Origin: Eubacteriales bacterium
GTDB lineage: Bacteria > Bacillota > Clostridia > Oscillospirales > QAKW01
Assembly (NCBI GenBank): GCA_045539135.1
Contig: JAZQET010000092.1
Coordinates: 1,200 to 65,199 of the forward strand
Reading direction: 5' to 3'
Length of the DNA: 64,000 nucleotides
Shown one piece after another: positions 1,353 to 50,042 of the stretch (position 1 is the stretch's first letter; every line of letters begins with the position of its first letter). Both the position numbers and the translations under genes were made by a program. A model generated the notes under the pieces. It was given only the letters and a program-made list of their open reading frames with translations. It did no database searches and was not told where the DNA came from.

Positions 1353-2639
1353 TTATTCCGCGATCAATGCGGCGGGAACCTCTTTGATTCCCAAGGTCTC
1401 GCGGCAGGCATTGAGCCCCTCGCCCACCACATCCATAATGCGGTCGTAAGAGGAGGTTAAGGAGCGAAGACTGTTGACCCCGAAAACCGAAAGATCTTTG
1501 GCTTCGGTATCCAGCGGGATGATGGTATACACCCGTCTGCCGCCCTCATATTCCATATTGACCCAAGTGGGCAGAATATCCATTGCGGAGACCTCCACCC
1601 GACCGTCGCTCCACTTTTGGAAGGTGATCTCGAAGACCATTCCGTCTTCGGTATGCCCGTTGGGCGCACTGGAAATACGGTCTCTGCGCTGGTTGGAAAC
1701 CGCATTGCCCACCGAGTAAACGCAATAGGTTTTATGCCCGTTTTCGGCGGTCAGTACCTCCATGGGCTGAAGCACATGGGGATGACCGCCCACGATCACA
1801 TCCACCCCCAGCTCATTCAGGCGGGCGGCGATGGTTTTTTGCTTTTTATTAGGCTTGAGTTGATATTCCTCGCCCCAATGGATAAACAGCATGGTGGCAT
1901 CGGCGCCCTCTGCCTTCATGGCGGCAAGGGTGGTCTCTACCTCCCGATAAAAGCTTTCCAGATCACTGTAATTAAAGCTGTTGACCAGCGGGCAGGCCTC
2001 CGCCTTCAAGGGGATGCCGTTTAAGGTCTTGCGCCCGTCGGAGGTCTTTTCGGTCTCATAGGTATAGCACGCCATTCCGAGGGAAATGCCGTCCACATCC
2101 CGCATAATATAATTTTTATCGGTCTCCGACAGGCGGGTGCCGGTATAGGCCATTCCCTTTTCCTTCAGCACCTGCTGCGTGCGGGTGAGCCCGTGATAGA
2201 AGGTATCATAGGTATGGTTATTGGCGGTGAGCACCATATCCACCCCTGCGCCCTGCAGGGCATCGATCACCGTGTCGGGACAGTTGAAGGTGGGATAGCC
2301 CACATAGGCGCCCGCCTCGGTGCCGCCCAAGGTGACCTCCAGATTGGCGATCATCAAGTCATAGCGGCTATAGTAGTCGGTGATATGGGTATAATTCTCG
2401 CTGAAATCATAATCGATCCGTGCCGCAGAGGTGATCAGCGGGGTATGGACCAGAATATCACCGGTCACACCCACGGTGGAATTGGCCACCACAAAGGGAC
2501 CCTCCGGCACGCCGGGGCGGTGCTCCTTTTCCACATAATCGGACACTGCCTGCTTGGCCGGTGCGCAAGAGGCGCAAAGCACCAAAATCATCAGCAATAA
2601 TGCGGCTTGCCGCAAAATGAAGCGTACTCTTTTTTTCAT
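1353..2639 (-). CDS. CapA/PGA_cap-family metallophosphatase-like lipoprotein
   Basis: 428 aa. Signal peptide with lipobox (LVLCASC). Motifs GDILVHTPL, ANLEVTLGG, FNCPD, LTANNHTYD and GGHPHVLQP are typical of the CapA family. Confidence 0.8.
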   Translation of the reverse strand: MKKRVRFILRQAALLLMILVLCASCAPAKQAVSDYVEKEHRPGVPEGPFVVANSTVGVTGDILVHTPLITSAARIDYDFSENYTHITDYYSRYDLMIANLEVTLGGTEAGAYVGYPTFNCPDTVIDALQGAGVDMVLTANNHTYDTFYHGLTRTQQVLKEKGMAYTGTRLSETDKNYIMRDVDGISLGMACYTYETEKTSDGRKTLNGIPLKAEACPLVNSFNYSDLESFYREVETTLAAMKAEGADATMLFIHWGEEYQLKPNKKQKTIAARLNELGVDVIVGGHPHVLQPMEVLTAENGHKTYCVYSVGNAVSNQRRDRISSAPNGHTEDGMVFEITFQKWSDGRVEVSAMDILPTWVNMEYEGGRRVYTIIPLDTEAKDLSVFGVNSLRSLTSSYDRIMDVVGEGLNACRETLGIKEVPAALIAE

Positions 2640-2648
2640 AGTTTCCCC

Positions 2649-2996
2649 TCAAATGATACGGGACAGCAGTTCATACAGAACATCCCACAGTGCATACAGC
2701 GGCATAAAGCTCAACAGCAGCACGCCGATGTCCAACGCCACGCCGCGCATGGTGAAATTTTTATGGCGGGAGATGACGTAAAACAGAAACAGCATCACCG
2801 CCGCCACCAAGCAAAGCAAGCCCGCAATAATGCTGACCCGATAGTCGATGGGGCTGATGATGATCTCCCCGAAGGACACCAGCTTATACCAAGTCAGCAA
2901 GCAATACAGCCCTGCACTGCCCGCCGCAGACAAACCCAGCGCCAGCAAAGCAGGCACCACAAACCGCCGCAGTCTCTTCCATTCCAATTTTTTCAT
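2649..2996 (-). CDS. Hypothetical small membrane protein (about 3 TM segments)
   Basis: 115 aa, hydrophobic segments, 9 nt upstream of the CapA-like gene in the same orientation. Confidence 0.55.
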   Translation of the reverse strand: MKKLEWKRLRRFVVPALLALGLSAAGSAGLYCLLTWYKLVSFGEIIISPIDYRVSIIAGLLCLVAAVMLFLFYVISRHKNFTMRGVALDIGVLLLSFMPLYALWDVLYELLSRII

Positions 2997-3147
2997 ATCC
3001 TCACCTGATTTCTTATATTTTATTTCACTTTATACTATACCGAATTTTTTCCGTTTTGACAAGAGGAAACGTTGAAAAAATCAAGGCTTTCCGATTTTCC
3101 GCCGGTTGCATTCTGTAATGTAAAAATTGGATTTTGTAAGTAACTAC

Positions 3148-3176
3148 TTGCTTTTTATATATTATTGTACTATAAT
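3148..3176 (+). promoter_or_regulatory. Candidate sigma-A promoter of the capsule biosynthesis operon
   Basis: TTGCTT (3148-3153), 17-nt spacer, TATAAT (3171-3176), about 80 nt upstream of the first cps gene. Confidence 0.55.
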
Positions 3177-3254
3177 ATATTTATATTTATGATGTGGTAT
3201 TGCGCCCATCGGCTCAAAGGCGCAAAAAACAACGGAAAAGGAAGTTTCAAAACG

Positions 3255-4442
3255 ATGGAATTCAAACCATTCAAGGAAAAAGTATGGCTCTCCTCCCCCA
3301 CTATGCACGGGGAAGAATTGGCTTACATAACCGAAGCGTATAAGACCAACTGGATGTCTACCATCGGTGAAAATATCAATCAAACCGAGGCTTATGCCGC
3401 CCAATATGTTGGCTGCAAGCACGCGGTAGGTCTCTCCTGCGGCACCGCCGCCCTGCATATGGCAATGAAGCTGGCAGGGGTCAAGCGGGGAGACAAGGTG
3501 TTTTGCTCCGATATGACCTTTGCGGCTACCGTCAATCCGGTGGTCTACGAGGGCGGCGTTCCCGTTTTCATCGATGTGGAGCGGGACACTTGGAATATGG
3601 ATCCTGTTGCATTGGAAAAAGCCTTTGAACTGTATCCCGATGTGAAGGTGGTGGTGGTTGCCAATCTTTACGGTACCCCCGCCAAGCTGGATGAGATCGC
3701 CGCCGTCTGCAAGCAGCACGGCGCCACTCTGATCGAGGATGCCGCCGAGTCTCTCGGCGCCACTTATAAAGGACAGCAGACCGGTTCCTTCGGTACATAC
3801 AATGTGATTTCCTTTAACGGCAATAAGATCATCACCGGCTCCTCCGGCGGAATGCTTTTGACCGATGATGCCGAAGCCGCCGCCAAGGTGCGCAAGTGGT
3901 CCACCCAAAGTCGGGACAATGCCCCTTGGTATCACCACACCGAGTTGGGTTATAACTACCGCATGAGCAATGTGATCGCAGGCGTGGTGCGCGGGCAGTT
4001 TCCTCATTTGGAGGAGCACATCGCGCAAAAGAAAGCCATCTTCGAGCGTTACAAGGAAGGCTTCAAGGACCTGCCTGTTACCATGAATCCTTTTGACGAA
4101 GAGACGATGGTGCCCAACTATTGGCTCTCCTGCCTGCTGATCGACGAAAGCGCCCTTTGCAAGCAGGAATACGGTGCCACCGCAGTGGAGTATGCCAAAG
4201 AGCAAGGCAAGACCTGCCCTGCCGAGATCTTGGAAAAGCTTTCCGCCTGCAATGCAGAGGGAAGACCCATCTGGAAGCCTATGCATCTGCAACCGATCTA
4301 TGCAAAGAATGCCTTTGTTACCGCGGCAGATACAGAGGTGGACACCGATATCTTCCAAAGAGGTCTTTGCCTGCCCAGCGATAATAAAATGACCGAGGAA
4401 CAGCAGGCGACGATCATCGAGATCATCCGCTCCTGCTTTTAA
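3255..4442 (+). CDS. DegT/DnrJ/EryC1/StrS-family sugar aminotransferase (PglE/EpsN-like)
   Basis: Trimmed from ORF 3165..4442 to MEFKPFKEKVWLSSPTMHGEEL. Contains FNGNKIITGSSGGMLLT (PLP-lysine region) and YNYRMSNV. Confidence 0.85.
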   Translation: MEFKPFKEKVWLSSPTMHGEELAYITEAYKTNWMSTIGENINQTEAYAAQYVGCKHAVGLSCGTAALHMAMKLAGVKRGDKVFCSDMTFAATVNPVVYEGGVPVFIDVERDTWNMDPVALEKAFELYPDVKVVVVANLYGTPAKLDEIAAVCKQHGATLIEDAAESLGATYKGQQTGSFGTYNVISFNGNKIITGSSGGMLLTDDAEAAAKVRKWSTQSRDNAPWYHHTELGYNYRMSNVIAGVVRGQFPHLEEHIAQKKAIFERYKEGFKDLPVTMNPFDEETMVPNYWLSCLLIDESALCKQEYGATAVEYAKEQGKTCPAEILEKLSACNAEGRPIWKPMHLQPIYAKNAFVTAADTEVDTDIFQRGLCLPSDNKMTEEQQATIIEIIRSCF

Positions 4443-4453
4443 GGTGTAAGCGT

Positions 4454-5083
4454 ATGTATGCAAACTGTTTCAAACGCGTTTTAGACTTCTTGCTTTCTCT
4501 TTGCGCCTTGACGGTGCTCTCTCCCCTGCTGCTGGCGCTGACTGTCATCGGCGCCATCGCGATGAAGGGGAACCCCTTTTTCACCCAACTGCGGCCGGGG
4601 AAGGACGAGCGGATCTTCAAGCTGATCAAATTCCGCACCATGACCTGCGAGACCGACGCCGACGGCAAGCCTTTGCCTGATGAACAGCGGCTGACCGCCT
4701 ACGGCAAGTTCTTGCGCGCTTCCTCGCTGGACGAACTGCCGGAGCTGTTCAACATCCTCATCGGCGATATGTCCATCGTGGGTCCGCGACCACTTTTGGT
4801 GGAATACTTACCCCTCTATAACGAAGAACAACGGCATCGTCACGATGTTCGCCCCGGACTGACCGGATATGCTCAAGTGCACGGACGCAACTCTGTGACT
4901 TGGGAAGAAAAGTTTCGGATGGATGTGGAGTATACCAAACACATCACCTTCGGAAAAGATCTACGCATTATTTTGGATACCGTGCTTGCGGTTTTGAAGC
5001 AAGACGGCATCAGTTCCGAAACCTCTGCTACAATGGAAAAATTTCAAGGTACATTTGAAGAAAAGGAATCTGTGAATTTATGA
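4454..5083 (+). CDS. Small monotopic phosphoglycosyl transferase (bacterial sugar transferase, PglC/EpsL-like)
   Basis: 209 aa. One N-terminal hydrophobic helix, KLIKFRTM, SLDELPELFNILIGDMSIVGPRP. Confidence 0.9.
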   Translation: MYANCFKRVLDFLLSLCALTVLSPLLLALTVIGAIAMKGNPFFTQLRPGKDERIFKLIKFRTMTCETDADGKPLPDEQRLTAYGKFLRASSLDELPELFNILIGDMSIVGPRPLLVEYLPLYNEEQRHRHDVRPGLTGYAQVHGRNSVTWEEKFRMDVEYTKHITFGKDLRIILDTVLAVLKQDGISSETSATMEKFQGTFEEKESVNL

Positions 5084-5688
5084 AAGAATTAATCATCTTT
5101 GGTGCAGGCGGGCACGCAAAAGTGGTTGCCGATCTGGCCATTCAGACAGGATATAAGATCCGCGGTTTTTTGGATGATCACCCCACCGCGCCCTCCTGCT
5201 TGGATTATCCCATTCTCGGATGTATTGAAGATTGTTTGAACTTTCCAAAGGCAGACTTCGCATTAGGCATCGGCAACAATGCTGTACGCAAACGCATTAT
5301 GGAACAGTTTCATCTGAATTTCCCCATCTTGATCCATCCGCGGGCAACAGTCAGCCCCTTCAGTACCGTTGGTGCAGGCACTGTTGTGATGGCGGGTGCG
5401 ATCGTCAATGCCTGTGCCACGATCGGGCAAGGGTGCGTGATCAATACCGCCGCTGTGGTGGAGCACGATTGCACAATAGGAGACTTTACCCTTCTGGCAC
5501 CCCACAGCACTGTTTGCGGCGGAACTTCTATCGGTTCGGAATGCTGGATCGGAGCGGGCAGTACCGTAAACAACGGTTTGCAGATCTGCAACGCAGCCAC
5601 GGTCGGATCCGGTGCTGCGGTGACAAAAAGCATCACTCAAGCCGGCACCTATGTGGGCGTGCCTGCAAAAATACGGAACGGAGAATAA
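5080..5688 (+). CDS. Hexapeptide-repeat sugar N-acetyltransferase (PglD/NeuD-like)
   Basis: 202 aa. N-terminal IIFGAGGHAKVVADL, C-terminal left-handed beta-helix repeats (GAGTVVMAGAIV..GQGCVINTAAVV). Confidence 0.85.
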   Translation: MKELIIFGAGGHAKVVADLAIQTGYKIRGFLDDHPTAPSCLDYPILGCIEDCLNFPKADFALGIGNNAVRKRIMEQFHLNFPILIHPRATVSPFSTVGAGTVVMAGAIVNACATIGQGCVINTAAVVEHDCTIGDFTLLAPHSTVCGGTSIGSECWIGAGSTVNNGLQICNAATVGSGAAVTKSITQAGTYVGVPAKIRNGE

Positions 5689-9579: not shown

Positions 9580-10860
9580 ATGAAACAACCCAAAGTCCTT
9601 GTTGTTGGAATCAATCCGTGGATCGATAATACCGGCATCAACACACTTATCAATTTTTTCAGCCATTGGGGCACCGATAACTTGGCACATCTTTATACCC
9701 GCCAACAGCTCCCCAACACCGCAATTTGCGAGCGGTTCTTTCGCATTTCCGAAACTGCAGTGATGCAAAGCGTTTACAAACGCTCTGTTATAACCGGACA
9801 GCAGGTCTGCAATAACCCCGCAGGAACGGACACCAAAGAAGAGCAAAAACACTATCAAAAAAAGCACACCCCTTTAATGTCTCTTATGCGGGAGTTGGTA
9901 TGGCTTTTAGGAAAATGGAAAACACCTGCCTTGAAACAATTCTTGGACGAGTTTGATGCAGATGTTCTGTTTTTCCCTGTTTATTCCGGCATTTATATGT
10001 GTCGGTTGCAAAACTTCATCCGCAAATACACTAAAAAGCCGGTCATTCTTTACAGCTCTGATGACAACTATTCTTATCAATCGGTTGCAAAAGATCCTCT
10101 TTCTTTGTTTTTGCGTTTTTGGCTTCGCAAGCAAGAAAAAAAACTCTTTGACCACGCCGCAAAAGTACTGGTGATCGCGCCGAAACAAAAAGAGGAATAT
10201 GACCGCTTATTCAAAACCGACTGTGGCATCCTGACCAAAGGAATTGATTTTTCCGTGATCCCCTATGAAGAAAAAAACATCAACAGCCCCATCAAATTGG
10301 TTTATACCGGAAAATTGATCATCGGCAGATGGAAATCTCTTGCCGCCATTGCAGAGGCTTTGGGTACCATCAACCGCAATGAAACGCGGGCGGAATTGGA
10401 TATTTATACCACCGACACACTGACCGAAGAGCAAAAAGCAGCGCTCAACCGCAACGGATGCTCGGTCAAAGGGGCATTGGCCCTCAATGAAGTGCAAAAA
10501 GTACAGAGGGAAGCCGATGTACTGATCTTTGTGGAAAGTCTGGAGCCTCAATTCAAAAACGCCGCCCGCCTTTCCTTCTCCACCAAAATCACCGATTATC
10601 TGAAAAACGGCAAATGCATCTTTGCCATCGGCGACCGTGGCATTGCGCCCATTGACTATTTCAACCGTTATGATGCGGCAATCACTGCCTCTACTTATGA
10701 AGAAATCGGGCAACAACTCACCCGGCTGATCGATCATCCCGCGCAAATCACGAAATATTCCAAAAAAGCTTACGAATGCGGAAAGGAGCATCACAGCATT
10801 GAAAAGATGGACGAGGTTCTTCGGAATGCCATCTGTAACTGTGTAAAAGAAAGGATATGA
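9580..10860 (+). CDS. Uncharacterised capsule-locus protein, possibly a divergent GT-B-like transferase
   Basis: 426 aa, no TM segments. The C-terminal half (ADVLIFVESLE..SFSTKITDYLKNGKCIFAIG) loosely resembles a GT-B C-domain. I recognise no confident family. Confidence 0.45.
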   Translation: MKQPKVLVVGINPWIDNTGINTLINFFSHWGTDNLAHLYTRQQLPNTAICERFFRISETAVMQSVYKRSVITGQQVCNNPAGTDTKEEQKHYQKKHTPLMSLMRELVWLLGKWKTPALKQFLDEFDADVLFFPVYSGIYMCRLQNFIRKYTKKPVILYSSDDNYSYQSVAKDPLSLFLRFWLRKQEKKLFDHAAKVLVIAPKQKEEYDRLFKTDCGILTKGIDFSVIPYEEKNINSPIKLVYTGKLIIGRWKSLAAIAEALGTINRNETRAELDIYTTDTLTEEQKAALNRNGCSVKGALALNEVQKVQREADVLIFVESLEPQFKNAARLSFSTKITDYLKNGKCIFAIGDRGIAPIDYFNRYDAAITASTYEEIGQQLTRLIDHPAQITKYSKKAYECGKEHHSIEKMDEVLRNAICNCVKERI

Positions 10861-27399: not shown

Positions 27400-28062
27400 A
27401 TGAAAAAAATCGTATCTATCGTTATGATCCTTGTGATGGCTTTGACCTGCTCTGTCAGCGCCTTTGCCGCACCCGCCGGCTTTGTTGCAAGCCCCGCTGT
27501 TGATTCTGTGAAGCTGGATTCTTTCGACAATGAAACCGAAAGCTGTGTTGCAGAGATCATCTTGACTCCCTATGCTGAAAAAGGCAAGTTGGATGCTGAA
27601 ACCAAGACTGCTTTGGATGCTGCATACAATGCCATCGTAAACAACGCTGCCGATTACACCAAAGCCTTGGACGCTATTGCCGCTGCTAAAAAGGTTGCCG
27701 CAAACCGTCTGGCTGTAAGCGATCTGTTTGATATCACCGTGAAAGATGATGCAGGTCATGAGCAGCACGGCACCTTCACCGTTACCCTGACTGCCAACAA
27801 TCTGGATAAGTTTGTAGCTCTTCTGCATTGCAACAACGGCGCTTGGACCACCGTTGAAGATGCAAAGGTCGAAGGCAATAAGCTGACCTTCACCTCCGAT
27901 GAGTTCTCTCCCTTCGCCATCGTGGTTGCTACCGGCAGTGCTACCGATTCTCCTGCAACCGGAGACAATTCCAATTTGGCTCTGTGGATCGCTCTGTTGG
28001 CTGTATCTGCCGGCGCTATCGTAGTTCTGGCTGTTTCCGCCAAAAAGAAGGCTGTTCGCTAA
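27400..28062 (+). CDS. Secreted cell-wall-sorted protein (signal peptide plus SPATGD sorting signal)
   Basis: Signal peptide MKKIVSIVMILVMALTCSVSAFA. C-terminus SPATGDNSNLALWIALLAVSAGAIVVLAVSAKKKAVR (motif, hydrophobic helix, basic tail). Confidence 0.75.
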   Translation: MKKIVSIVMILVMALTCSVSAFAAPAGFVASPAVDSVKLDSFDNETESCVAEIILTPYAEKGKLDAETKTALDAAYNAIVNNAADYTKALDAIAAAKKVAANRLAVSDLFDITVKDDAGHEQHGTFTVTLTANNLDKFVALLHCNNGAWTTVEDAKVEGNKLTFTSDEFSPFAIVVATGSATDSPATGDNSNLALWIALLAVSAGAIVVLAVSAKKKAVR

Positions 28063-29087: not shown

Positions 29088-29109
29088 TTTCCTAAAAATC
29101 AAATAAAAA

Positions 29110-29138
29110 AGAGCAAACACATTAATTGTGTCTGCTCT
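29110..29138. terminator. Bidirectional terminator between the convergent cps operon and the peptide-modification cassette
   Basis: Stem agagcaaacac-attaatt-gtgtctgctct, flanked by an A-run on the left and a T-run on the right. Confidence 0.75.
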
Positions 29139-29140
29139 TT

Positions 29141-29608
29141 TTATTTTATCTTTCGCTTCAGCCAGCCCCATCCCCGCCGCCAAAAATGGCGCAAGGGGCG
29201 GCTCCAATGCCACAGCCGACAGTAAGCTTGATGCCGGAAGGACGCGACTGACCGCATTTTATCTCCGCGGGAATACCCGCTGACGATGCCTATGATCTGC
29301 TCCTTGCAGACCCCTTTTTCCACAACAAATTGGTTATCTCCCATACAGGAAAGGGTCTCACCCACCGCCACAACGCGGTGCAGTACATAAGCCCCCTGGG
29401 CATTTTGATACAGCAACAGATCAAATTTTTTCGGTTGCTCCTTGAGCGGTGCCAATTCCACCCGATCCTTCCCTTGCCGCAGCATAGGCAACATACTGGT
29501 TCCGCGGGGAGAAAAGCAAACCTTCTGCCCTGCCGCCAGTTGCTCGCGCATCAAGGGCACCAGCTCTTCCATGGAGCAGATGCGCTCATTCGGTAAGCTC
29601 ATACGCAT
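29141..29608 (-). CDS. Soluble S24/S26-superfamily peptidase with a Ser/His (Sec11/SipW-type) signature
   Basis: 155 aa. GTSMLPML (box B Ser), YVLHRVVAV (HR where bacterial type-I SPases have KR), MGDNQ (box E). No TM segment. Trp/Arg-rich tail RLWHWSRPLRHFWRRGWGWLKRKIK. Confidence 0.7.
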   Translation of the reverse strand: MRMSLPNERICSMEELVPLMREQLAAGQKVCFSPRGTSMLPMLRQGKDRVELAPLKEQPKKFDLLLYQNAQGAYVLHRVVAVGETLSCMGDNQFVVEKGVCKEQIIGIVSGYSRGDKMRSVASFRHQAYCRLWHWSRPLRHFWRRGWGWLKRKIK

Positions 29609-29846
29609 TTAACTTTTCCAAAAAAGCCTGCACGCTGGCAAGCGCCTGCTCCTCGGTCACATCATATTCAGCAGTCAGTGCCTGCACCAACGCGTCTTCT
29701 GTGGTTTCTTTCTCCATCTGCTCCCAAAGAAACCGACCGGTCTCATTGAGGGTGATCATCATATTCAGATCCAAGGTGCTTCCCGAGGGGATCACAACCG
29801 TTTCTCCCGCCACCTGACGAAGCACAAACCCGTCTTTTAATTTCAT
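29586..29846 (-). CDS. PqqD-family protein (RiPP recognition element fold)
   Basis: 86 aa. FVLRQVAGETVVIP..MITLNETGRFLWEQMEKETTEDALVQALTAEYDV..EQALASVQAFLEKL, a typical stand-alone PqqD/RRE pattern. Confidence 0.8.
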   Translation of the reverse strand: MKLKDGFVLRQVAGETVVIPSGSTLDLNMMITLNETGRFLWEQMEKETTEDALVQALTAEYDVTEEQALASVQAFLEKLNAYELTE

Positions 29847-30547
29847 TGCTTTACTCCTTTAGACATTGCCTCATAAGCCACTGTCGCCGCTTCGGGCTCC
29901 ATATTGCATTGCAATTCCCAAATAGGCACATCGGTCAGTAGCCGATCCAATAACTCCAATAGCCTTTCCCGATCTTCTTTCTTCGGAGGACGATTAACCT
30001 GTTTGAGAATCTTTTGAATGGCATCGATTCCATTTGCAGGCTTGATCACATTGGTCTCTCCCCGCTTCAAAAGGGCAATGCCCCCCAAGGGAACCCGACG
30101 GTCTTCGCTGATATCATTTTTTCCGCTCCAAGGGGTGCCGTAGGCATACCAACCGCCCTCTTCACACCTTAAGGCAGGCTTATCGTCATTTAAGATATAG
30201 GCGCGCGTGCCAAACTGCTTCAGCCAAAGGCTGGTGTGGGTGGACTTTCCTGTTCCGCTGTCTGCAGTAAACAGATAAGCAACATCGTCCACTACTACAG
30301 CCGAGGAATGGAGCATTAAACCGTCATAACGCAATAAATGGCGGTAAAAAGAATACCCTGTAGACAGATACTGACCTATATCATCACTCAAAAGCGGATA
30401 CTGCTTCCGATACCTTTCCCAAGAAGAGGTAACCTCCATCATTGGTGCTTCTTGCTCTTGGATGCGGTATTTTTCCGCCCGCTCCGCAGTCATACCAGAA
30501 GCGTCCATTTGGAAGGGGATCCCTGCGACCCGATAAAACTTCTTCAT
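29843..30547 (-). CDS. HPr-kinase-C-domain-like P-loop protein (HprK-related kinase)
   Basis: 234 aa. LHSSAVVVDDVAYLFTADSGTGKSTHTSLW (P-loop) and YILNDDKPAL..YGTPWSGK. Four-nt overlap with the PqqD gene. Confidence 0.7.
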   Translation of the reverse strand: MKKFYRVAGIPFQMDASGMTAERAEKYRIQEQEAPMMEVTSSWERYRKQYPLLSDDIGQYLSTGYSFYRHLLRYDGLMLHSSAVVVDDVAYLFTADSGTGKSTHTSLWLKQFGTRAYILNDDKPALRCEEGGWYAYGTPWSGKNDISEDRRVPLGGIALLKRGETNVIKPANGIDAIQKILKQVNRPPKKEDRERLLELLDRLLTDVPIWELQCNMEPEAATVAYEAMSKGVKQ

Positions 30548-30550
30548 TTC

Positions 30551-31219
30551 TTAGGACTTTCCTTTCACATAATCGTGAAGATTCAAGGATCCGCCGTTTA
30601 CGGTGTTAGCCGCCTGCTTGGCATCATAAGCCGCCTGAGCCGCCTCCCGCCATTCGCGAAACGCAGAGGGACTTTTAAAGGTCTCGTGAAACGCTGCTTG
30701 GCGGGTCATATCCATAGCCAAATACTCTTCATACTCTTTTGCCAAGGCTTCATCATATACGATGGGTTCGCTTTCCCCTGACGAAGGTTCCGACGGGACG
30801 ATCTCTCCCGTCCCTTCATAAGAGGGGGTAGATCCCTCGTTCCCGCTTTCTCCGCCGCCTTCACCCATAAAGCCATCCTCCGAGGCGCCGCCTTCGCCCA
30901 TAGAGCCGTCTACCTGCTGGTTGCCGTCGGGCTGTTGGGGGCTTGAAGAGGTACCGTCGCTGCTGACTGCTTGATCGGGATCCTCCTCAAAGGAATCGGA
31001 GCCGGAAGAAGTGCCGCTTCCTTGATTACCAACAGTGCCGGAAGGCGCACTCACATTGCCGGACCCTTCGGTGCCGATCTCCGCCTCCCCTTGGCTCAGC
31101 TGTTCGCCTTTGGAATTTTCTTCTATGGGCTTTTCATCGGGATTGCATCCGGCGGTGCACAGCAACACACCTGCCAAAAGTCCCGCCATCATTGCCCGAA
31201 AAACCGTTCTTTTATTCAT
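30551..31219 (-). CDS. Acidic low-complexity lipoprotein, function unknown
   Basis: Signal and lipobox LLCTAGC. Long Ser/Gly/Glu/Asp-rich linker. Helical C-terminal region EYLAMDMTRQAAFHETFKSPSAFREWREAAQAAYDAKQ. Own promoter TTGCAC-17-TATTAT on the minus strand around 31250-31285. Confidence 0.65.
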   Translation of the reverse strand: MNKRTVFRAMMAGLLAGVLLCTAGCNPDEKPIEENSKGEQLSQGEAEIGTEGSGNVSAPSGTVGNQGSGTSSGSDSFEEDPDQAVSSDGTSSSPQQPDGNQQVDGSMGEGGASEDGFMGEGGGESGNEGSTPSYEGTGEIVPSEPSSGESEPIVYDEALAKEYEEYLAMDMTRQAAFHETFKSPSAFREWREAAQAAYDAKQAANTVNGGSLNLHDYVKGKS

Positions 31220-31299
31220 TCGGGAATTCTCCTTTAATCAAATCTTTGTTCTTATTCTATAATACCACACCGTAGGAGAATGTGCAAGTACAATAAATC

Positions 31300-31341
31300 T
31301 GACAAAAACACAAAAAGCAGAGCGAACTTTAGTCGCTCTGC
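31300..31341 (-). terminator. Rho-independent terminator immediately after the 40-codon ORF
   Basis: Stem gcagagcga-7 nt-tcgctctgc (31317-31341), followed on the minus strand by TTTTTgtgTTTTTg. Confidence 0.75.
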
Positions 31342-31367
31342 TTCGATTATAACAAAAGGATTACCAA

Positions 31368-31490
31368 TTACTCCCCTTCGGTAGTGGAATCTTCTTCGTA
31401 ATAATCACTGCCTTCAAAGGTAGCCATAATACGCTCAGCTTCCTGCAGTTTGATCACTTCTACGGTAGGCTCTTGGAAAAACTTCTTCAT
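31368..31490 (-). CDS. Unannotated 40-aa acidic peptide (candidate precursor/substrate peptide)
   Basis: Own translation: MKKFFQEPTVEVIKLQEAERIMATFEGSDYYEEDSTTEGE. AAGGAGG sits 8 nt upstream of the ATG and a terminator lies 26 nt after the stop. Too short to appear in the ORF track. Confidence 0.6.
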   Translation of the reverse strand: MKKFFQEPTVEVIKLQEAERIMATFEGSDYYEEDSTTEGE

Positions 31491-31643
31491 TTTTCATTCC
31501 TCCTTATTTCCGAATTACATACAAGGGCTCAAATAATCCCTCGCAGATATAAACCCATTATTTTTATACAAGAAATATTATAAAACAAATTCACTTGGTT
31601 GTGCATAGCCTGATGTTGTTTGTTTTTATCATTATGTGACTAA

Positions 31644-32843
31644 TCAATATTCAGCCTCTTCAAAAAGACCCAAACGGCTGTAAACCTCTGCCCGACAGTC
31701 TGCATCCTTATTCATCGACAGCAAAGAATACCGTTTTCCGGTCAATACCCTGCCCAAATACCGCATGGCGCGACCGCAATCCAGCACCAAGGCAAGCACC
31801 TTATTCTTGCGGGCGGCAGGATGCTGTTCCAAGGTGGAGCGATGCAATGTATCATAGAGATAATAGACCTTACTGCGGCCTACACCGTCTTTTCCGTGGT
31901 TAGAGATCATCAACCCGCTGGCGGCACGCTTGGGGTCTTTACGACCGAAATTGCCCCCCAAAAGTACATCCTCCAACACCGCCTCGATCAGATCCTCCTC
32001 TACTTCCTCCAGCCAAGAGGGGCGAGCGATTTCAAAAGCACGAACACAAACCGCCGTCATTACATGCATATAGCGAAGCAATCCCACCTCCCTCAATAAA
32101 GGAAGCAGTTGCTCCTGCCAAAACGGTTCCCGATGGGTGGCGTGCACAAAGCACCCCCAATCGCAAAGATGGCGAAGACCCAATCCCTCACCCACCATAT
32201 GGTGCTGCATATGTAAAAGCAGGATCAGTCCGTGATCCACAGGCGCAGGGGCGCAAAAGCCTTCCCGTTCCATCCCGCGGTTCCACGCTTCCGCGAGGGT
32301 CTCGCGCAGGATCTCCCCTGCCGCACCGTGGGGAATGCCTGCCGGCTCATGGTGCATCTCCAAATGGGAACCCGGCTTTTTAAACACCTGATGGCAGGTA
32401 TGCTCCTCATGGGAGCGGGCAAAGCCTTTTTCCATCAGCTCCGCGGCGATCTCCTCTTTCTGCTTGGGATCGATCAGAAAATCCACATCCCCCAGCATCC
32501 GCAAGTGGGGATTGGGATAATATGCCGCCGCGGCGGCACCCTTTAAGATCACATAAGGATACCCTTTCGCCTGCAAAAGTTCAACCAATTCCGCTTGTGC
32601 AACACCCACCAGCATATTGGCGCGCAACCGACGGAAGGACTCCTTTTGCCAGTTCTCATAAAGCTCCTTGGGGATCTGCTCTTTGACCGCCGCCGCACCG
32701 TCGAAGGCCTGAAGAAAGACCGCCTGTACTTTGGCATTTTTAATCAAAAGTTCCCAATCAATCTCTTCCGAAGGCACCGAGAGTTCTGTGCCCCAAAGGG
32801 AGCCGCGCAGCAGTTCCAACAAAAATTGATCTTCCTTTTGCAT
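31644..32843 (-). CDS. Nucleotidyltransferase-family protein (NTP_transf_5-like)
   Basis: Start moved to MQKEDQFLLELLRG (AAGGAGG 7 nt upstream). LRMLGDVDFLID (G-x-D-x-D nucleotidyltransferase motif). About 400 aa. Confidence 0.7.
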   Translation of the reverse strand: MQKEDQFLLELLRGSLWGTELSVPSEEIDWELLIKNAKVQAVFLQAFDGAAAVKEQIPKELYENWQKESFRRLRANMLVGVAQAELVELLQAKGYPYVILKGAAAAAYYPNPHLRMLGDVDFLIDPKQKEEIAAELMEKGFARSHEEHTCHQVFKKPGSHLEMHHEPAGIPHGAAGEILRETLAEAWNRGMEREGFCAPAPVDHGLILLLHMQHHMVGEGLGLRHLCDWGCFVHATHREPFWQEQLLPLLREVGLLRYMHVMTAVCVRAFEIARPSWLEEVEEDLIEAVLEDVLLGGNFGRKDPKRAASGLMISNHGKDGVGRSKVYYLYDTLHRSTLEQHPAARKNKVLALVLDCGRAMRYLGRVLTGKRYSLLSMNKDADCRAEVYSRLGLFEEAEY

Positions 32844-32881
32844 CTTCAGACCTCCTTTCAAAAATGGTTATTTACCTTTTT

Positions 32882-32910
32882 ATTATAGTCTTTCCTCCCC
32901 TTACTGTCAA
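32882..32910 (-). promoter_or_regulatory. Consensus sigma-A promoter for the nucleotidyltransferase and peptide genes
   Basis: Minus strand TTGACA (32910-32905), 17-nt spacer, TATAAT (32887-32882). Both hexamers match the consensus perfectly. Confidence 0.7.
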
Positions 32911-32924
32911 GCAAAGTCCCTCTC

Positions 32925-32952
32925 TTGCAAAAAGGAAAATTTATGCTATACT
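32925..32952 (+). promoter_or_regulatory. Promoter of the WYL regulator gene (divergent)
   Basis: TTGCAA (32925-32930), 16-nt spacer, TATACT (32947-32952). Confidence 0.55.
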
Positions 32953-32965
32953 GATAGGTGAGGTG

Positions 32966-33967
32966 ATGGAAATGGCAAAATCCCTATATCAACAGCAAAA
33001 GCTTTTGCGGTTGCAACAGATCTTTCTGCAAGAGACCGATGAACAGCACGGTCTCACTATGGAAGAAATTCTTGCCCGCCTTTCGGCTTACGGCATTCAG
33101 GCGGAGCGCAAAAGCATCTATGAAAATATTGAGACCCTCAATGCCTGCGGAATGGACATCCTCAAAGAACGGCGAAACAGCAAGACCTATTATTATTCGG
33201 TGGGCAGAGAGTTCGAGGAGGCGGAAGTGCGCCTGTTGGCAGATGCGGTGGCATCCTCCCGTTTTATTACAGTCAAAAAATCCGAAGAGCTTCTGAAAAA
33301 GCTCACCACCCTCACCAGCCGCCACCACGGTGCAGAACTGCGGCGTCAGTTATATGTGGCAAGTCGTATTAAAAATATGAACGAGACGGTCTATTATGTT
33401 TTAGATGAGCTGAACCGTGCCATCCACCGCAATGTTACCATCTCTTTTTGCTACTACGATTGGACCTTGGAGCGGGGCACCTTGCAAAAGACCGCCCGCC
33501 ACGGCGGACAGCAATACACCATCTCCCCTTGGCAATTGCTCTGGCAAGACGAACTTTATTACCTGATTGCCTTTGACCATACCTCCCAAGAGATCCGCCA
33601 CTATCGGGTGGATCGGATGGGGCTGATCACCCTCACCGACCTTCCCCGCCAAGGAGAGGAGGCGTTCCAACAAATTCGCATGGAAAACTATACCTCCCGC
33701 CTTTTCGGTATGTTCGGCGGCAAAAGCCAATGGGTGACCCTTTCCTTCCCCGCTCGGTTTTTGGACATTATGGTGGACCGATTCGGCAAGGATCTGCGTC
33801 CCACCCTTTTGAAGAACGGTGATCTGGAGATCCGCGCCGAGGTGATCCCCAGCCTGCCCTTTTACGGTTGGCTCTTTTCCTTGGGAAAAGAGGTGCAACT
33901 GACGGAGCCCCTCGCCTTGCGGGAAGAATATAAGACTTATCTTCAAGAGCAACTTTCTTCCATATAA
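32966..33967 (+). CDS. WYL-domain transcriptional regulator (wHTH-WYL-WCX architecture)
   Basis: Trimmed to MEMAKSLYQQQKLLRLQQIF. N-terminal HTH (LTMEEILARLSAYGIQAERKSIYENIETL). WYL core WQLLWQDELYYLIAFDHTSQEIRHYRVDRM. Confidence 0.8.
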   Translation: MEMAKSLYQQQKLLRLQQIFLQETDEQHGLTMEEILARLSAYGIQAERKSIYENIETLNACGMDILKERRNSKTYYYSVGREFEEAEVRLLADAVASSRFITVKKSEELLKKLTTLTSRHHGAELRRQLYVASRIKNMNETVYYVLDELNRAIHRNVTISFCYYDWTLERGTLQKTARHGGQQYTISPWQLLWQDELYYLIAFDHTSQEIRHYRVDRMGLITLTDLPRQGEEAFQQIRMENYTSRLFGMFGGKSQWVTLSFPARFLDIMVDRFGKDLRPTLLKNGDLEIRAEVIPSLPFYGWLFSLGKEVQLTEPLALREEYKTYLQEQLSSI

Positions 33968-48556: not shown

Positions 48557-49312
48557 TTGAATAAGATCATTCTTTGGTTCCAAGAAATGTGGACAGAGTT
48601 TTCTGCCGATTTCTATAAGAACTTTATTAAAAGCGATCGCTGGCTCTCCCTGCTCAAGGGCTTGGGTGCCACCCTGCAGATCACCTTTTTTGCACTGATC
48701 ATCGGTCTTTTGCTGGGCATTGTGGTGGCGGCGGTTCGCTCTACTTTTGATAAAAATCACGAAGTGATGAAGAAAAAGGGCGGCGTCAGCTGGGCCCTGC
48801 TGAAGTTCTTCAACAGCATCTGCAACATTTACCTGACGGTGATCCGCGGTACCCCTGTGGTGGTGCAGTTGATGATCTTCTTCTTTGTGGTGTTTGCAGG
48901 CTCCCGTAACGGAATTATGGTTGCCACCATCGCCTTCGGTGTGAACTCCGGTGCCTATGTGGCGGAGATCTTCCGCAGCGGCATCCTTTCGGTGGACAAC
49001 GGGCAGTTTGAAGCAGGCCGTTCCTTGGGATTCAGTTATCTGCAAACCATGATCTATGTGATCATTCCCCAAGCCTTCAAGGCGGTATTGCCCACCTTGT
49101 GTAATGAATTCATCGTGCTGCTGAAGGAGACCTCCGTAGCCGGCTATGTGGGCGTTATCGACCTGACCAAAGCGGGCGACATTATTCGCGGACGTACCTT
49201 CTCTGCCTATATGCCCCTGATCGCCGTTGCCATTGTTTATTTGGTGATGGTGATGATCCTGACCGCCTTGGTGCGGATGCTGGAAAGGAGGTTGCGTAAG
49301 AGTGAGCGATAA
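48557..49312 (+). CDS. Amino-acid ABC transporter permease
   Basis: 251 aa (TTG start). EAA loop [24 protein letters not shown]. Confidence 0.88.
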
Positions 49313-50042
49313 GATCATTGAAGTAATCGGCTTGAAAAAGCATTATAACGGCGGTGCCATCAAGGCACTCAACGGTATTGATGTGACCATCAACCGCGGC
49401 GAAGTGGTGGTGGTGATCGGACCTTCCGGCTCCGGCAAATCCACTCTTCTGCGCTCTTTGAACCTGCTGGAGGATCCCACCGAAGGGCAAATCATTGTGG
49501 ATGGCACCGATATTGCCGATAAAAAGGCAAACATCAACCTCCACCGCCAGAAGATGGGGATGGTGTTTCAGCACTTCAACCTCTTCCCCCATATGACCAT
49601 CCTGAAAAATATGACCATCGCCCCCATGAAGCTGAAAAAGGTGCCAAAGGAGGAGGCGGAAGCCACCGCTTTGGAGCTTTTGAAGCGGGTAGGTCTTGAG
49701 GATCGGGCGGGGGCTTATCCCAGCCAGCTTTCCGGCGGGCAGAAGCAGCGTGTTGCCATTGTGCGTGCATTGGCAATGAACCCTGCGGTAATGCTCTTCG
49801 ACGAGCCCACCTCCGCTTTGGATCCCGAAATGGTCGGCGAGGTTCTGGAAGTTATGAAGGAACTGGCCAAAGAAGGGATGACCATGGTGGTGGTGACCCA
49901 CGAAATGGGCTTTGCCAAAGAGGTTGCCGATCGGGTGCTCTTTATTGACGAGGGCATCATTCAGGAGCAGGGTACCCCCGAGGAGATCTTCGAGCATCCC
50001 CAAAATCCCCGTACCCAAAGCTTCCTCTCAAAAGTATTATAA
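49302..50042 (+). CDS. Amino-acid ABC transporter ATP-binding protein
   Basis: [35 protein letters not shown]. Confidence 0.93.

Follow-up and report, generated by a model that had tools for sequence, protein, structure and literature searches.

In a 64-kb stretch of contig JAZQET010000092.1 from a Eubacteriales bacterium, the whole of which we refer to as the window, the minus strand at positions 31368-31490 carries an open reading frame (ORF) for a peptide of 40 aa (MKKFFQEPTVEVIKLQEAERIMATFEGSDYYEEDSTTEGE) plus stop codon. Sequence comparison and analogy with a published system suggest this ORF very probably to encode the precursor of a linear phosphorylated ribosomal peptide, in a gut-Clostridia branch of the clusters for linear polyphosphorylated peptides (LPPs; Popov et al., Nat Commun 2026;17:6633, PMC13381572). 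The genes concerned follow one another on the minus strand in the order NTP_transf_5 nucleotidyltransferase, peptide, lipoprotein, kinase, PqqD-family protein, peptidase and terminator. Upstream of this cluster lies a capsule locus comprising a glycosyltransferase, a flippase, UDP-sugar enzymes, CapD, Wzz/CpsD, CpsB and LCP; the cluster sits at its end, between capsule genes and adjoining the LCP transferase. For comparison, 80 related genome loci were retrieved via an alignment of kinase relatives. All of them come from metagenome-assembled genomes annotated as Clostridia, with mostly Oscillospiraceae such as Faecousia as hosts and a few labelled Lachnospiraceae.

The peptide gene and its signals

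The ATG start codon, as given in the ORF list, is preceded by the Shine-Dalgarno sequence AAGGAGG (31499-31505, minus strand), which is read directly from the DNA, is identical in the syntenic loci L001, L003 and L004, and is separated from the ATG by an 8-nt spacer (AATGAAAA). Further upstream, a consensus scan returned a promoter-like site for the peptide gene (TGCACA-17-TATAAT at 31577-31605, minus strand; 10/12 matches), with a putative function and a -10 region identical in the same three loci. On the 3′ side of the gene, a predicted intrinsic terminator (31314-31344, minus strand) is formed by a 12-bp stem with the arms GAAGCAGAGCGA and TCGCTCTGCTTT at 31344..31314 and a subsequent T-run (TTGTGTTTTT). 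Its fold energy is -20.6 kcal/mol (z = -4.3 relative to shuffles), and the stem is kept in L001, L003 and L004 around a variable loop. Beyond the terminator and ahead of the lipoprotein gene, the consensus scan placed a second promoter-like site, conserved in relatives, that would serve the operon from lipoprotein to peptidase (TGCACA-16-TATTAT with a preceding TG, 31286..31259, minus strand).

With a promoter-like site and a terminator of its own, and the second promoter-like site beyond, the ORF looks like a separate short transcription unit. This arrangement fits the proposal of a first-pass annotation, made from the letters of the window, that the precursor is produced in excess. All sequence details of that annotation, from the ORF and its translation to the AAGGAGG 8 nt before the ATG, hold; the 9-bp GC-rich hairpin it had placed 26 nt after the stop codon is there as well, as the core of what turns out to be the longer, 12-bp stem.

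In database searches the peptide has remained nameless. A protein search returned an identical 40-mer on record, of NCBI source and with no name, and a contig look-up using the exact 40-aa product gave no match. Neither Pfam nor NCBIfam holds a model for the peptide, and a PDB search with it yielded no match. Since the surrounding 15-kb stretch is overlapped by as many as 156 ORFs that reach 30 aa or more, the length of the ORF is by itself no evidence. It might thus be a chance ORF, or an incidentally translatable part of a small RNA, an attenuator or some other non-coding element with a regulatory role, given that the hairpin alone could be regulatory. An Rfam scan of 31100-31750 returned a best E of 0.62, which is below threshold and on the opposite strand, and the comparison with related loci speaks for translation, as follows.

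Leader and core

When the window is aligned with L001, L003 and L004 at the nucleotide level, the promoter, the ribosome-binding site, the first 22 codons and the hairpin stem are near-identical. Within the leader (residues 1-22, MKKFFQEPTVEVIKLQEAERIM; 31425-31490, minus strand), the only amino-acid change is Q6E, all remaining substitutions being synonymous. From residue 23 on, by contrast, the codons of the core (residues 23-40, ATFEGSDYYEEDSTTEGE; 31371-31424, minus strand) are swapped in the relatives, with wholesale replacement and in-frame indels. All that the three core variants have in common is a Ser-Asp pair and an E-E-D run. Because leader changes are synonymous, core indels stay in frame, and start codon and ribosome-binding site are kept, we consider the leader to be under protein-level constraint; the core, judged by the same alignment, is in rapid turnover, which suggests diversifying selection or recombination. 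Even in distant loci, where the DNA is unrelated, the N-terminal peptide motif stays the same. On these comparative grounds, ORF 31368-31490 is a real, conserved gene, and a chance ORF or purely regulatory element becomes highly improbable. As the first-pass annotation had expected of a genuine precursor, the ORF is conserved in syntenic loci with in-frame changes only, and its organization, in which the N-terminal leader is conserved and the C-terminal core varies, is that of a peptide synthesized on the ribosome and modified after translation (RiPP).

Between strains with near-identical flanking DNA, the core-coding stretch forms a localized hypervariable cassette.

Two features of the core had been singled out in that annotation as candidate modification sites. 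The first, the Ser/Thr-rich tail DSTTEGE, was proposed to offer acceptor hydroxyls; it is an in-frame replacement that eliminates the relatives' stop codon, i.e. an extension specific to the window and absent from its closest relatives, and so does not qualify. Of the hydroxyl residues, only Ser28 (31407-31409, minus strand) recurs in each of the three core variants (as GSD, MSD and ISD); it is the predicted phospho-acceptor. The second was the sequence EGSDY, whose E-x3-Y spacing recalls PqqA and its Glu-Tyr cross-link, here between Glu26 and Tyr30. A small peptide accompanied by a PqqD-family chaperone is indeed what the PqqA/PqqD/PqqE system and this cluster share. However, the two nearest homologues of the peptide, both of 34 aa and found by protein search in loci with the gene order of the window (P0002, MKKFFEEPTVEVIKLQEAERIMAIGMSDGTEEDE; P0003, MKKFFEEPTVEVIKLQEAERIMFENISDEVEEDE), contain no Tyr, the Glu/Tyr pair is not conserved, and E-x3-Y is not a feature of the wider family described below. 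Moreover, the cluster lacks a radical S-adenosylmethionine (SAM) gene of the PqqE type, nor is there one among 12 scanned ORFs of 388-687 aa, a scan that left several other large ORFs of the window aside, and TIGR03859 is matched with 20.8 bits against a cut-off of 46. We therefore give a PqqA-like cross-link next to no credence. The peptide is free of Cys, as had been noted, and thioether chemistry is not to be expected.

The leader does contain a predicted recognition motif, F5-Q-E-P8-T-V10 (31461-31478, minus strand). It matches [Y/W]xxPx[L/V/I/F/A], the motif bound by LppB and by lasso B1 proteins (PMC13381572), except for its Phe anchor. The earlier suggestion that a PqqD-type RiPP recognition element (RRE) reads the leader is strengthened by this aromatic-x-x-Pro-x-aliphatic arrangement and, by analogy, by the crystal structure of an LPP homologue (PMC13381572).

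Partner proteins and their LPP counterparts

The LPP system is summarized here after PMC13381572. Around 126 clusters were surveyed, mostly in Bacilli and located in capsule loci, with lppA-K-B-S-D-N of Paenibacillus alginolyticus DSM5050 as the reference cluster. LppA is 35-200 aa long and combines a conserved N-terminus (YxxPxVLxHQxIxFETxxS) with a variable C-terminus. LppK is an HprK-like kinase, LppB a discrete RRE, LppS an archaeal-type signal peptidase, LppD an MsbA-like exporter and LppN a nucleoside triphosphate (NTP) transferase. Clostridia go unmentioned in the main text. In the supplement, cluster 9 of the sequence similarity network (SSN) contains a pair from "uncultured Ruminococcus sp." for which the precursor is given as "ND".

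The first partner in the window is a kinase of 234 aa (29843-30547, minus strand), LppK-like and HprK-fold by fold match, which belongs to the Pfam ScmC family and has the P-loop SGTGKST. Its matches to TIGR04249 and TIGR04352 are weak, and PF27840 is precomputed for its homologues. More than 7,700 relatives (sequence clusters) were found among the scored candidates, none of them named, and in their alignment the Walker A residues G98, G100, K101, S102 and T103 are invariant. A PDB sequence-profile search with the kinase alignment gave noise only. The AlphaFold model (predicted local distance difference test, pLDDT, 91.7), when compared by Foldseek, found its best PDB match in HprK/P (1kkm_A; E = 3.3e-5, probability 1.00), followed by PEP carboxykinases, which have the same fold as HprK/P. 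Going by the modelled fold, rather than by a sequence comparison with LppK, the cluster contains the HprK-like kinase of the LPP set.

Membership in the ScmC family (PF27840) and the weak TIGR04249 match link the kinase to SynChlorMet ScmC, as a weak ScmD match (TIGR04248) does for the PqqD-family protein. Yet the scores stay far from the curated cut-offs (20.9 vs 125 bits and 22.4 vs 100 bits). The SynChlorMet cassette includes radical SAM/SPASM partners; the window cluster differs in having no radical SAM gene.

The second partner is an LppB-like discrete RRE, a PqqD-family protein of 86 aa (29586-29846, minus strand; PF05402, E = 6.8e-20). It is 47% identical to the PqqD protein of SSN cluster 9 (E = 1e-24). 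Its three best PDB matches, 9x90_B, 5v1u_A and 9x8z_B, are lasso and LPP recognition proteins, all of them weak. In the crystal structure of LppB with its leader (PMC13381572), the leader forms a beta-strand, a hydrophobic pocket takes up Tyr-16, to which Asp70 is hydrogen-bonded, and Asn33 fixes Pro-13, which packs against Val35 and Phe74. The corresponding leader-contact residues N34, F75 and L33 of the window RRE are kept in 80/80 loci and Y61 in 75/80, with N34, Y61 and F75 equivalent to N33, Y60 and F74 in a weak alignment to LppB (E = 0.17).

The third partner is an LppS-like homologue of archaeal/SipW-type signal peptidase I (155 aa; 29141-29608, minus strand), the predicted leader peptidase, whose gene overlaps that of the RRE by 23 nt. 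It has no Pfam or NCBIfam match and was identified by means of sequences from the supplement of the LPP paper; BLASTP gave 27% identity to LppS WP_029196374.1 (E = 2e-12), and 41% identity was found to SCH01704.1 from SSN cluster 9 (E = 9e-33). Ser38 and His77 are each present in 70/70 homologues and Glu97 in 69/70, aligning with S29, H68 and D93 of LppS, catalytic residues that experiments showed to be required there; the exchange of Asp for Glu is conservative. The acidic residue of the triad is Glu in this clade and in SSN clusters 4 and 9, and Asp in the characterized LppS and in SSN cluster 1. On inspection of the sequence, no predictor having been run, no transmembrane segment is apparent. 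A terminator-like hairpin with a 16-bp stem and a T-run (29106-29142, minus strand) marks the end of the operon.

The LppN-like nucleotidyltransferase (31644-32861, minus strand; NTP_transf_5, PF14907, E = 1.3e-43) is encoded immediately upstream of the peptide, and a perfect TTGACA-17-TATAAT promoter match (32910..32882, minus strand) precedes its gene. The triad of kinase, PqqD protein and peptidase is intact in ~70/80 loci; NTP_transf_5 co-occurs with it in many of them, upstream or downstream, and is often but not always nearby. Thus, all four partner proteins belong to named families and have their key residues kept. This bears out the kinase and nucleotidyltransferase that the first-pass annotation had named as partners. 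Its RiPP reading as a whole was largely right; what it missed is the 155-aa leader peptidase and the match to the LPP family.

The presence of PqqD, an HPr-type kinase and a nucleotidyltransferase raises the question of a lasso peptide, since the same three co-occur in lasso clusters of Firmicutes (PMC7533575). The cyclase and B2 would then be encoded elsewhere, the PqqD protein would be B1, and kinase and nucleotidyltransferase would act as tailoring enzymes, as for paeninodin. The best NCBIfam and PDB matches of the window PqqD protein are lasso B1 proteins. For paeninodin and pseudomycoidin, too, a [Y/W]xxP leader is recognized by a B1 protein of the PqqD type, a homologue of HPr kinase (poly)phosphorylates one precursor Ser, and a nucleotidyltransferase is associated (PMC7533575, PMC13381572). 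Against this stands the absence of an asparagine-synthase-like cyclase and of a transglutaminase-like B2 among the cluster genes and the 12 ORFs of the above scan. The cluster instead has a serine peptidase for leader removal where lasso clusters have cyclase C and the cysteine protease B2, and this dedicated SipW-type enzyme is built into the operon in ~70/80 loci. In those lasso peptides the acceptor is the C-terminal Ser (PMC7533575), whereas the window peptide ends in Glu, and clusters of the present type make linear peptides (PMC13381572). A lasso precursor is therefore very unlikely, and an LPP-type precursor remains the reading we pursue.

A peptide family in Clostridia

Using a profile derived from the leader and iterated, family peptides were detected in 35/80 loci, with near-threshold matches in L045 and L059, in addition to eight close loci and the window. 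The ORF under study matches the family profile with 35 bits (E = 1.9e-9) and is the sole such ORF in the 64 kb. Altogether, 39 distinct family peptides of 31-50 aa adjoin homologous enzyme genes, their usual place being on the same strand and directly upstream of the gene for the 234-aa kinase. They share the N-terminal consensus M-K-x-F-E-x-P-x-I-E-V-x-x-F, and most also have E-D-V-I-T-T-S. The anchor three residues before the Pro is Phe in 32/39 and Tyr in 7/39, the Pro itself being present in 38/39. Downstream of the consensus, the C-terminal parts cannot be aligned and have an acidic composition (D 15%, G 13%, E 12%, K+R+H 1.5% over the 39 peptides). No NCBIfam model covers the family. Searching 5.8 billion sequences with the profile of the 39 peptides returned 240 short unnamed proteins at E <= 0.01, and reverse look-ups from two of these found ScmC/HprK-like and PqqD genes as neighbours.

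The conserved T-T-S may be either an AxA-like cleavage site or a phospho-acceptor. Near the C-terminus, ~11/39 cores contain an Asn-x-Ser/Thr triplet (NET, NDT, NAT, NQT, NES or NDS), which may be a low-complexity by-product or a modification site.

Two loci depart from the usual arrangement. In L029, a B12-binding radical SAM enzyme (2150-3901) lies between peptide and kinase. In L075, a Cys-rich peptide of 77 aa whose N-terminus resembles the family (10089-10322) is encoded directly upstream of a second PqqD gene (10323-10604).

Comparison with the LPP system

The likeness to LPP clusters extends from the peptide to its surroundings. On both sides, a short precursor with an aromatic-xx-P-x-aliphatic leader and a variable core is accompanied by a PqqD-type RRE, an HprK-like kinase, a SipW-like cytoplasmic leader peptidase and an NTP_transf_5 protein, in a capsule-locus setting and without a macrolactam cyclase (for the window, within the genes scanned). 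In the related Clostridia loci L091 and L092, the order peptide-kinase-RRE-peptidase-ABC exporter-NTP_transf_5-Wzz reproduces the lppAKBSDN order. The basic logic of the cluster is already known from LPPs.

Several observations weigh against an LPP assignment. The peptidase shares no more than the 27% of residues given above with LppS, and the similarity of the RRE to LppB (E = 0.17) is not significant by sequence alone. The window anchor is Phe rather than Tyr, and Asp70 of LppB, which hydrogen-bonds the Tyr hydroxyl, corresponds in that weak alignment to Ser71. Beyond xxPxV, the extended leader consensus of LppA is unmatched, the window having FQEPTVEVIKLQEAERIMATFEGS instead. The conserved Ser is at +23 from the anchor (+22 in two relatives), compared with +18 in LppA. 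No exporter gene, MsbA-like or other, is found in or beside the cluster; the sole ORF of the window with an LSGGQ motif (49263-50042) is ~18 kb off. Activity of LppN was not seen in the published system, where lppN deletion had no visible effect (PMC13381572). Lastly, 44/80 loci are without a recognizable family peptide within ~6 kb, even after three further profile rounds and, for 21 of them, a scan aimed at short ORFs that possess a ribosome-binding site. Some of these contigs end just upstream, while L012, L020 and others extend well upstream.

Further differences concern composition and context. The window core is short and strongly acidic, whereas two LppA cores from the supplement are, by eye, rich in Gly, Asn, Pro and Lys (PMC13381572). 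The catalytic Asp of LppS is replaced by Glu97, a conserved lipoprotein gene is inserted between precursor and kinase, and the hosts are Clostridia of Oscillospiraceae type as opposed to Bacilli. Residues F25-E26-G27-S28 are a possible echo of FET..S in LppA; they are not kept in L001 (AIGMS), and the wider clade has EDV-I-T-T-S. Because the exporter and the extended leader consensus are missing, we file the cluster as an LPP-like variant and not as a plain member.

Position 71 of the RRE is taken by Ala, Ser, His or Cys in the clade, a variability that fits a Phe anchor. His occurs at this position alongside 3/7 Tyr-anchored and 1/32 Phe-anchored peptides, counts that ignore kinship; this hints that position 71 co-varies with the anchor residue.

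Loci with no peptide detected, such as L012, L020, L021 and L047, still carry an intact kinase-PqqD-peptidase triad. The substrate of the enzymes may there be encoded elsewhere, or the precursor may be too divergent to be detected.

Proposed pathway

For the window cluster, the published Paenibacillus system serves as a template from which we infer binding, phosphorylation, cleavage and the order of these steps. Transcribed as its own short unit with a strong ribosome-binding site, the peptide could be made in excess. The 86-aa PqqD-family protein would bind F5-x-x-P8-x-V10 as an added beta-strand, whereupon the HprK-fold kinase would add at least one phosphate to a Ser near the start of the core, most likely Ser28. 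The SipW-type serine peptidase, with its presumed Ser38/His77/Glu97 triad, would remove the leader in a manner dependent on the recognition protein, probably cutting between residues 24 and 28, and further decoration of the phosphate may come from the NTP_transf_5 enzyme. The expected product is an acidic peptide of ~13-16 residues, made from within a capsule-synthesis locus. As the spacing of the conserved Ser differs from that in LppA, acceptor and cleavage site are guesses, and we put the chances of Ser28 being the phospho-acceptor at about even.

In the published system, LppK attaches as many as four phosphates in B. subtilis; they sit on core Ser3, Thr and Tyr not being used. Deletion of lppK abolished modification. 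LppS cuts after Thr-1, poorly on unphosphorylated peptide and only with LppB present (PMC13381572).

The same enzymes might also carry out a different chemistry, in which NTP_transf_5 nucleotidylates or glycosylates the peptide, or the peptide is joined to a capsule or wall polymer. The position of the cluster, flanked by capsule genes and with an LCP transferase as its neighbour, would suit such an outcome, as would cores that have no Ser/Thr beyond the junction motif, e.g. (TTS)VVGGENQLPLG in L063. Furthermore, the nucleotidyltransferase of pseudomycoidin has been linked to glycosylation of a phosphorylated C-terminus (cited in PMC7533575), and the authors of the LPP study state the final product to be unknown (PMC13381572). 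The kinase, however, is the most constant partner, and NTP_transf_5 is missing near many triads; in the published system, lppN deletion changed nothing whereas lppK deletion abolished modification (PMC13381572). We hence regard such other chemistry as rather improbable, and favour phosphorylation of an LPP-type precursor.

On that reading, a sister LPP branch exists in gut and rumen Clostridia, and the family described here supplies the precursors for SSN cluster 9, "ND" in the supplement of PMC13381572. The combination of a Phe anchor with an RRE devoid of the Tyr-binding Asp bears on the argument of that paper that the aromatic residue sets recognition specificity. That the cores are short, acidic and swapped between near-identical strains points to diversifying selection.

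A neighbouring lipoprotein and shared C-terminal tags

Between the peptide and kinase genes of the window, an acidic, Ser/Gly-rich lipoprotein of 222 aa is encoded (30551-31219, minus strand; lipobox LTAGC). It has no Pfam or NCBIfam match and ends in a conserved C-terminal domain of ~65 aa with the consensus LTYEEYxAMSxxEQQAYYxSFxSxxDFxAW... In at least 18 related loci, a homologue directly precedes the kinase gene. Its sequence SDSFEED matches the motif S-D-x-x-E-E-D of all three core variants, as happened in 35/20,000 shuffles, and the alignment of the window core with its own lipoprotein scores 36, a value reached by 2/300 shuffles. In the lipoprotein-type loci L001, L003, L010, L017, L037 and L039, the cognate core-lipoprotein score was no better than the non-cognate one.

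In at least seven other loci (L022, L054, L055, L057, L063 and L089/L090), the peptide and an adjacent secreted protein end in the same 6-10 residues, and approximate sharing is seen in L029 and L084. The neighbour is either an acidic, Thr/Glu-rich lipoprotein or an SLH-domain protein with a signal peptide, and the shared tags read VGGENQLPLG, NQLPLG, QLPFLPGV, PNATPWG, VPGGEW and ENETPDW. Peptide and secreted protein are encoded, respectively, at 4387-4491 and 4732-5880 in L063, 798-917 and 1155-2306 in L054, 4662-4793 and 5026-5925 in L055, 333-464 and 547-915 in L057, 5753-5860 and 6730-7149 in L022, and 5001-5102 and 5245-5595 in L089. The tag codons differ at synonymous sites, which argues for tag identity being maintained at the protein level. 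The available text of PMC13381572 contains no mention that we could find of tags shared between peptide and surface protein.

These pairs raise the prospect that the core is a strain-specific tag, forming a matched pair with the adjacent surface lipoprotein or SLH protein, rather than a free-standing antimicrobial or signal. We consider this unlikely. Such a shared tag could be used for recognition, for attaching to a polymer of the capsule or wall, or for competing over one binding partner, and matched tags, if they hold, would be the first lead to the function of LPPs in capsule loci.

Other genes around the cluster

Divergent from the nucleotidyltransferase gene, a regulator with WYL and WCX domains is encoded on the plus strand (32864-33967; PF13280, PF25583). 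Among the related loci, only the close relatives L001, L002, L004, L005 and L006 keep it next to the cluster, which it possibly regulates.

Just downstream of the cluster, between the capsule phosphatase CpsB and the LCP transferase, the plus strand encodes an LPXTG-anchored protein of 220 aa that weakly matches the MBG domain (27400-28062). A large protein with an MBG domain is encoded in L091 and L092, where it ends 45 nt upstream of the gene for the precursor.

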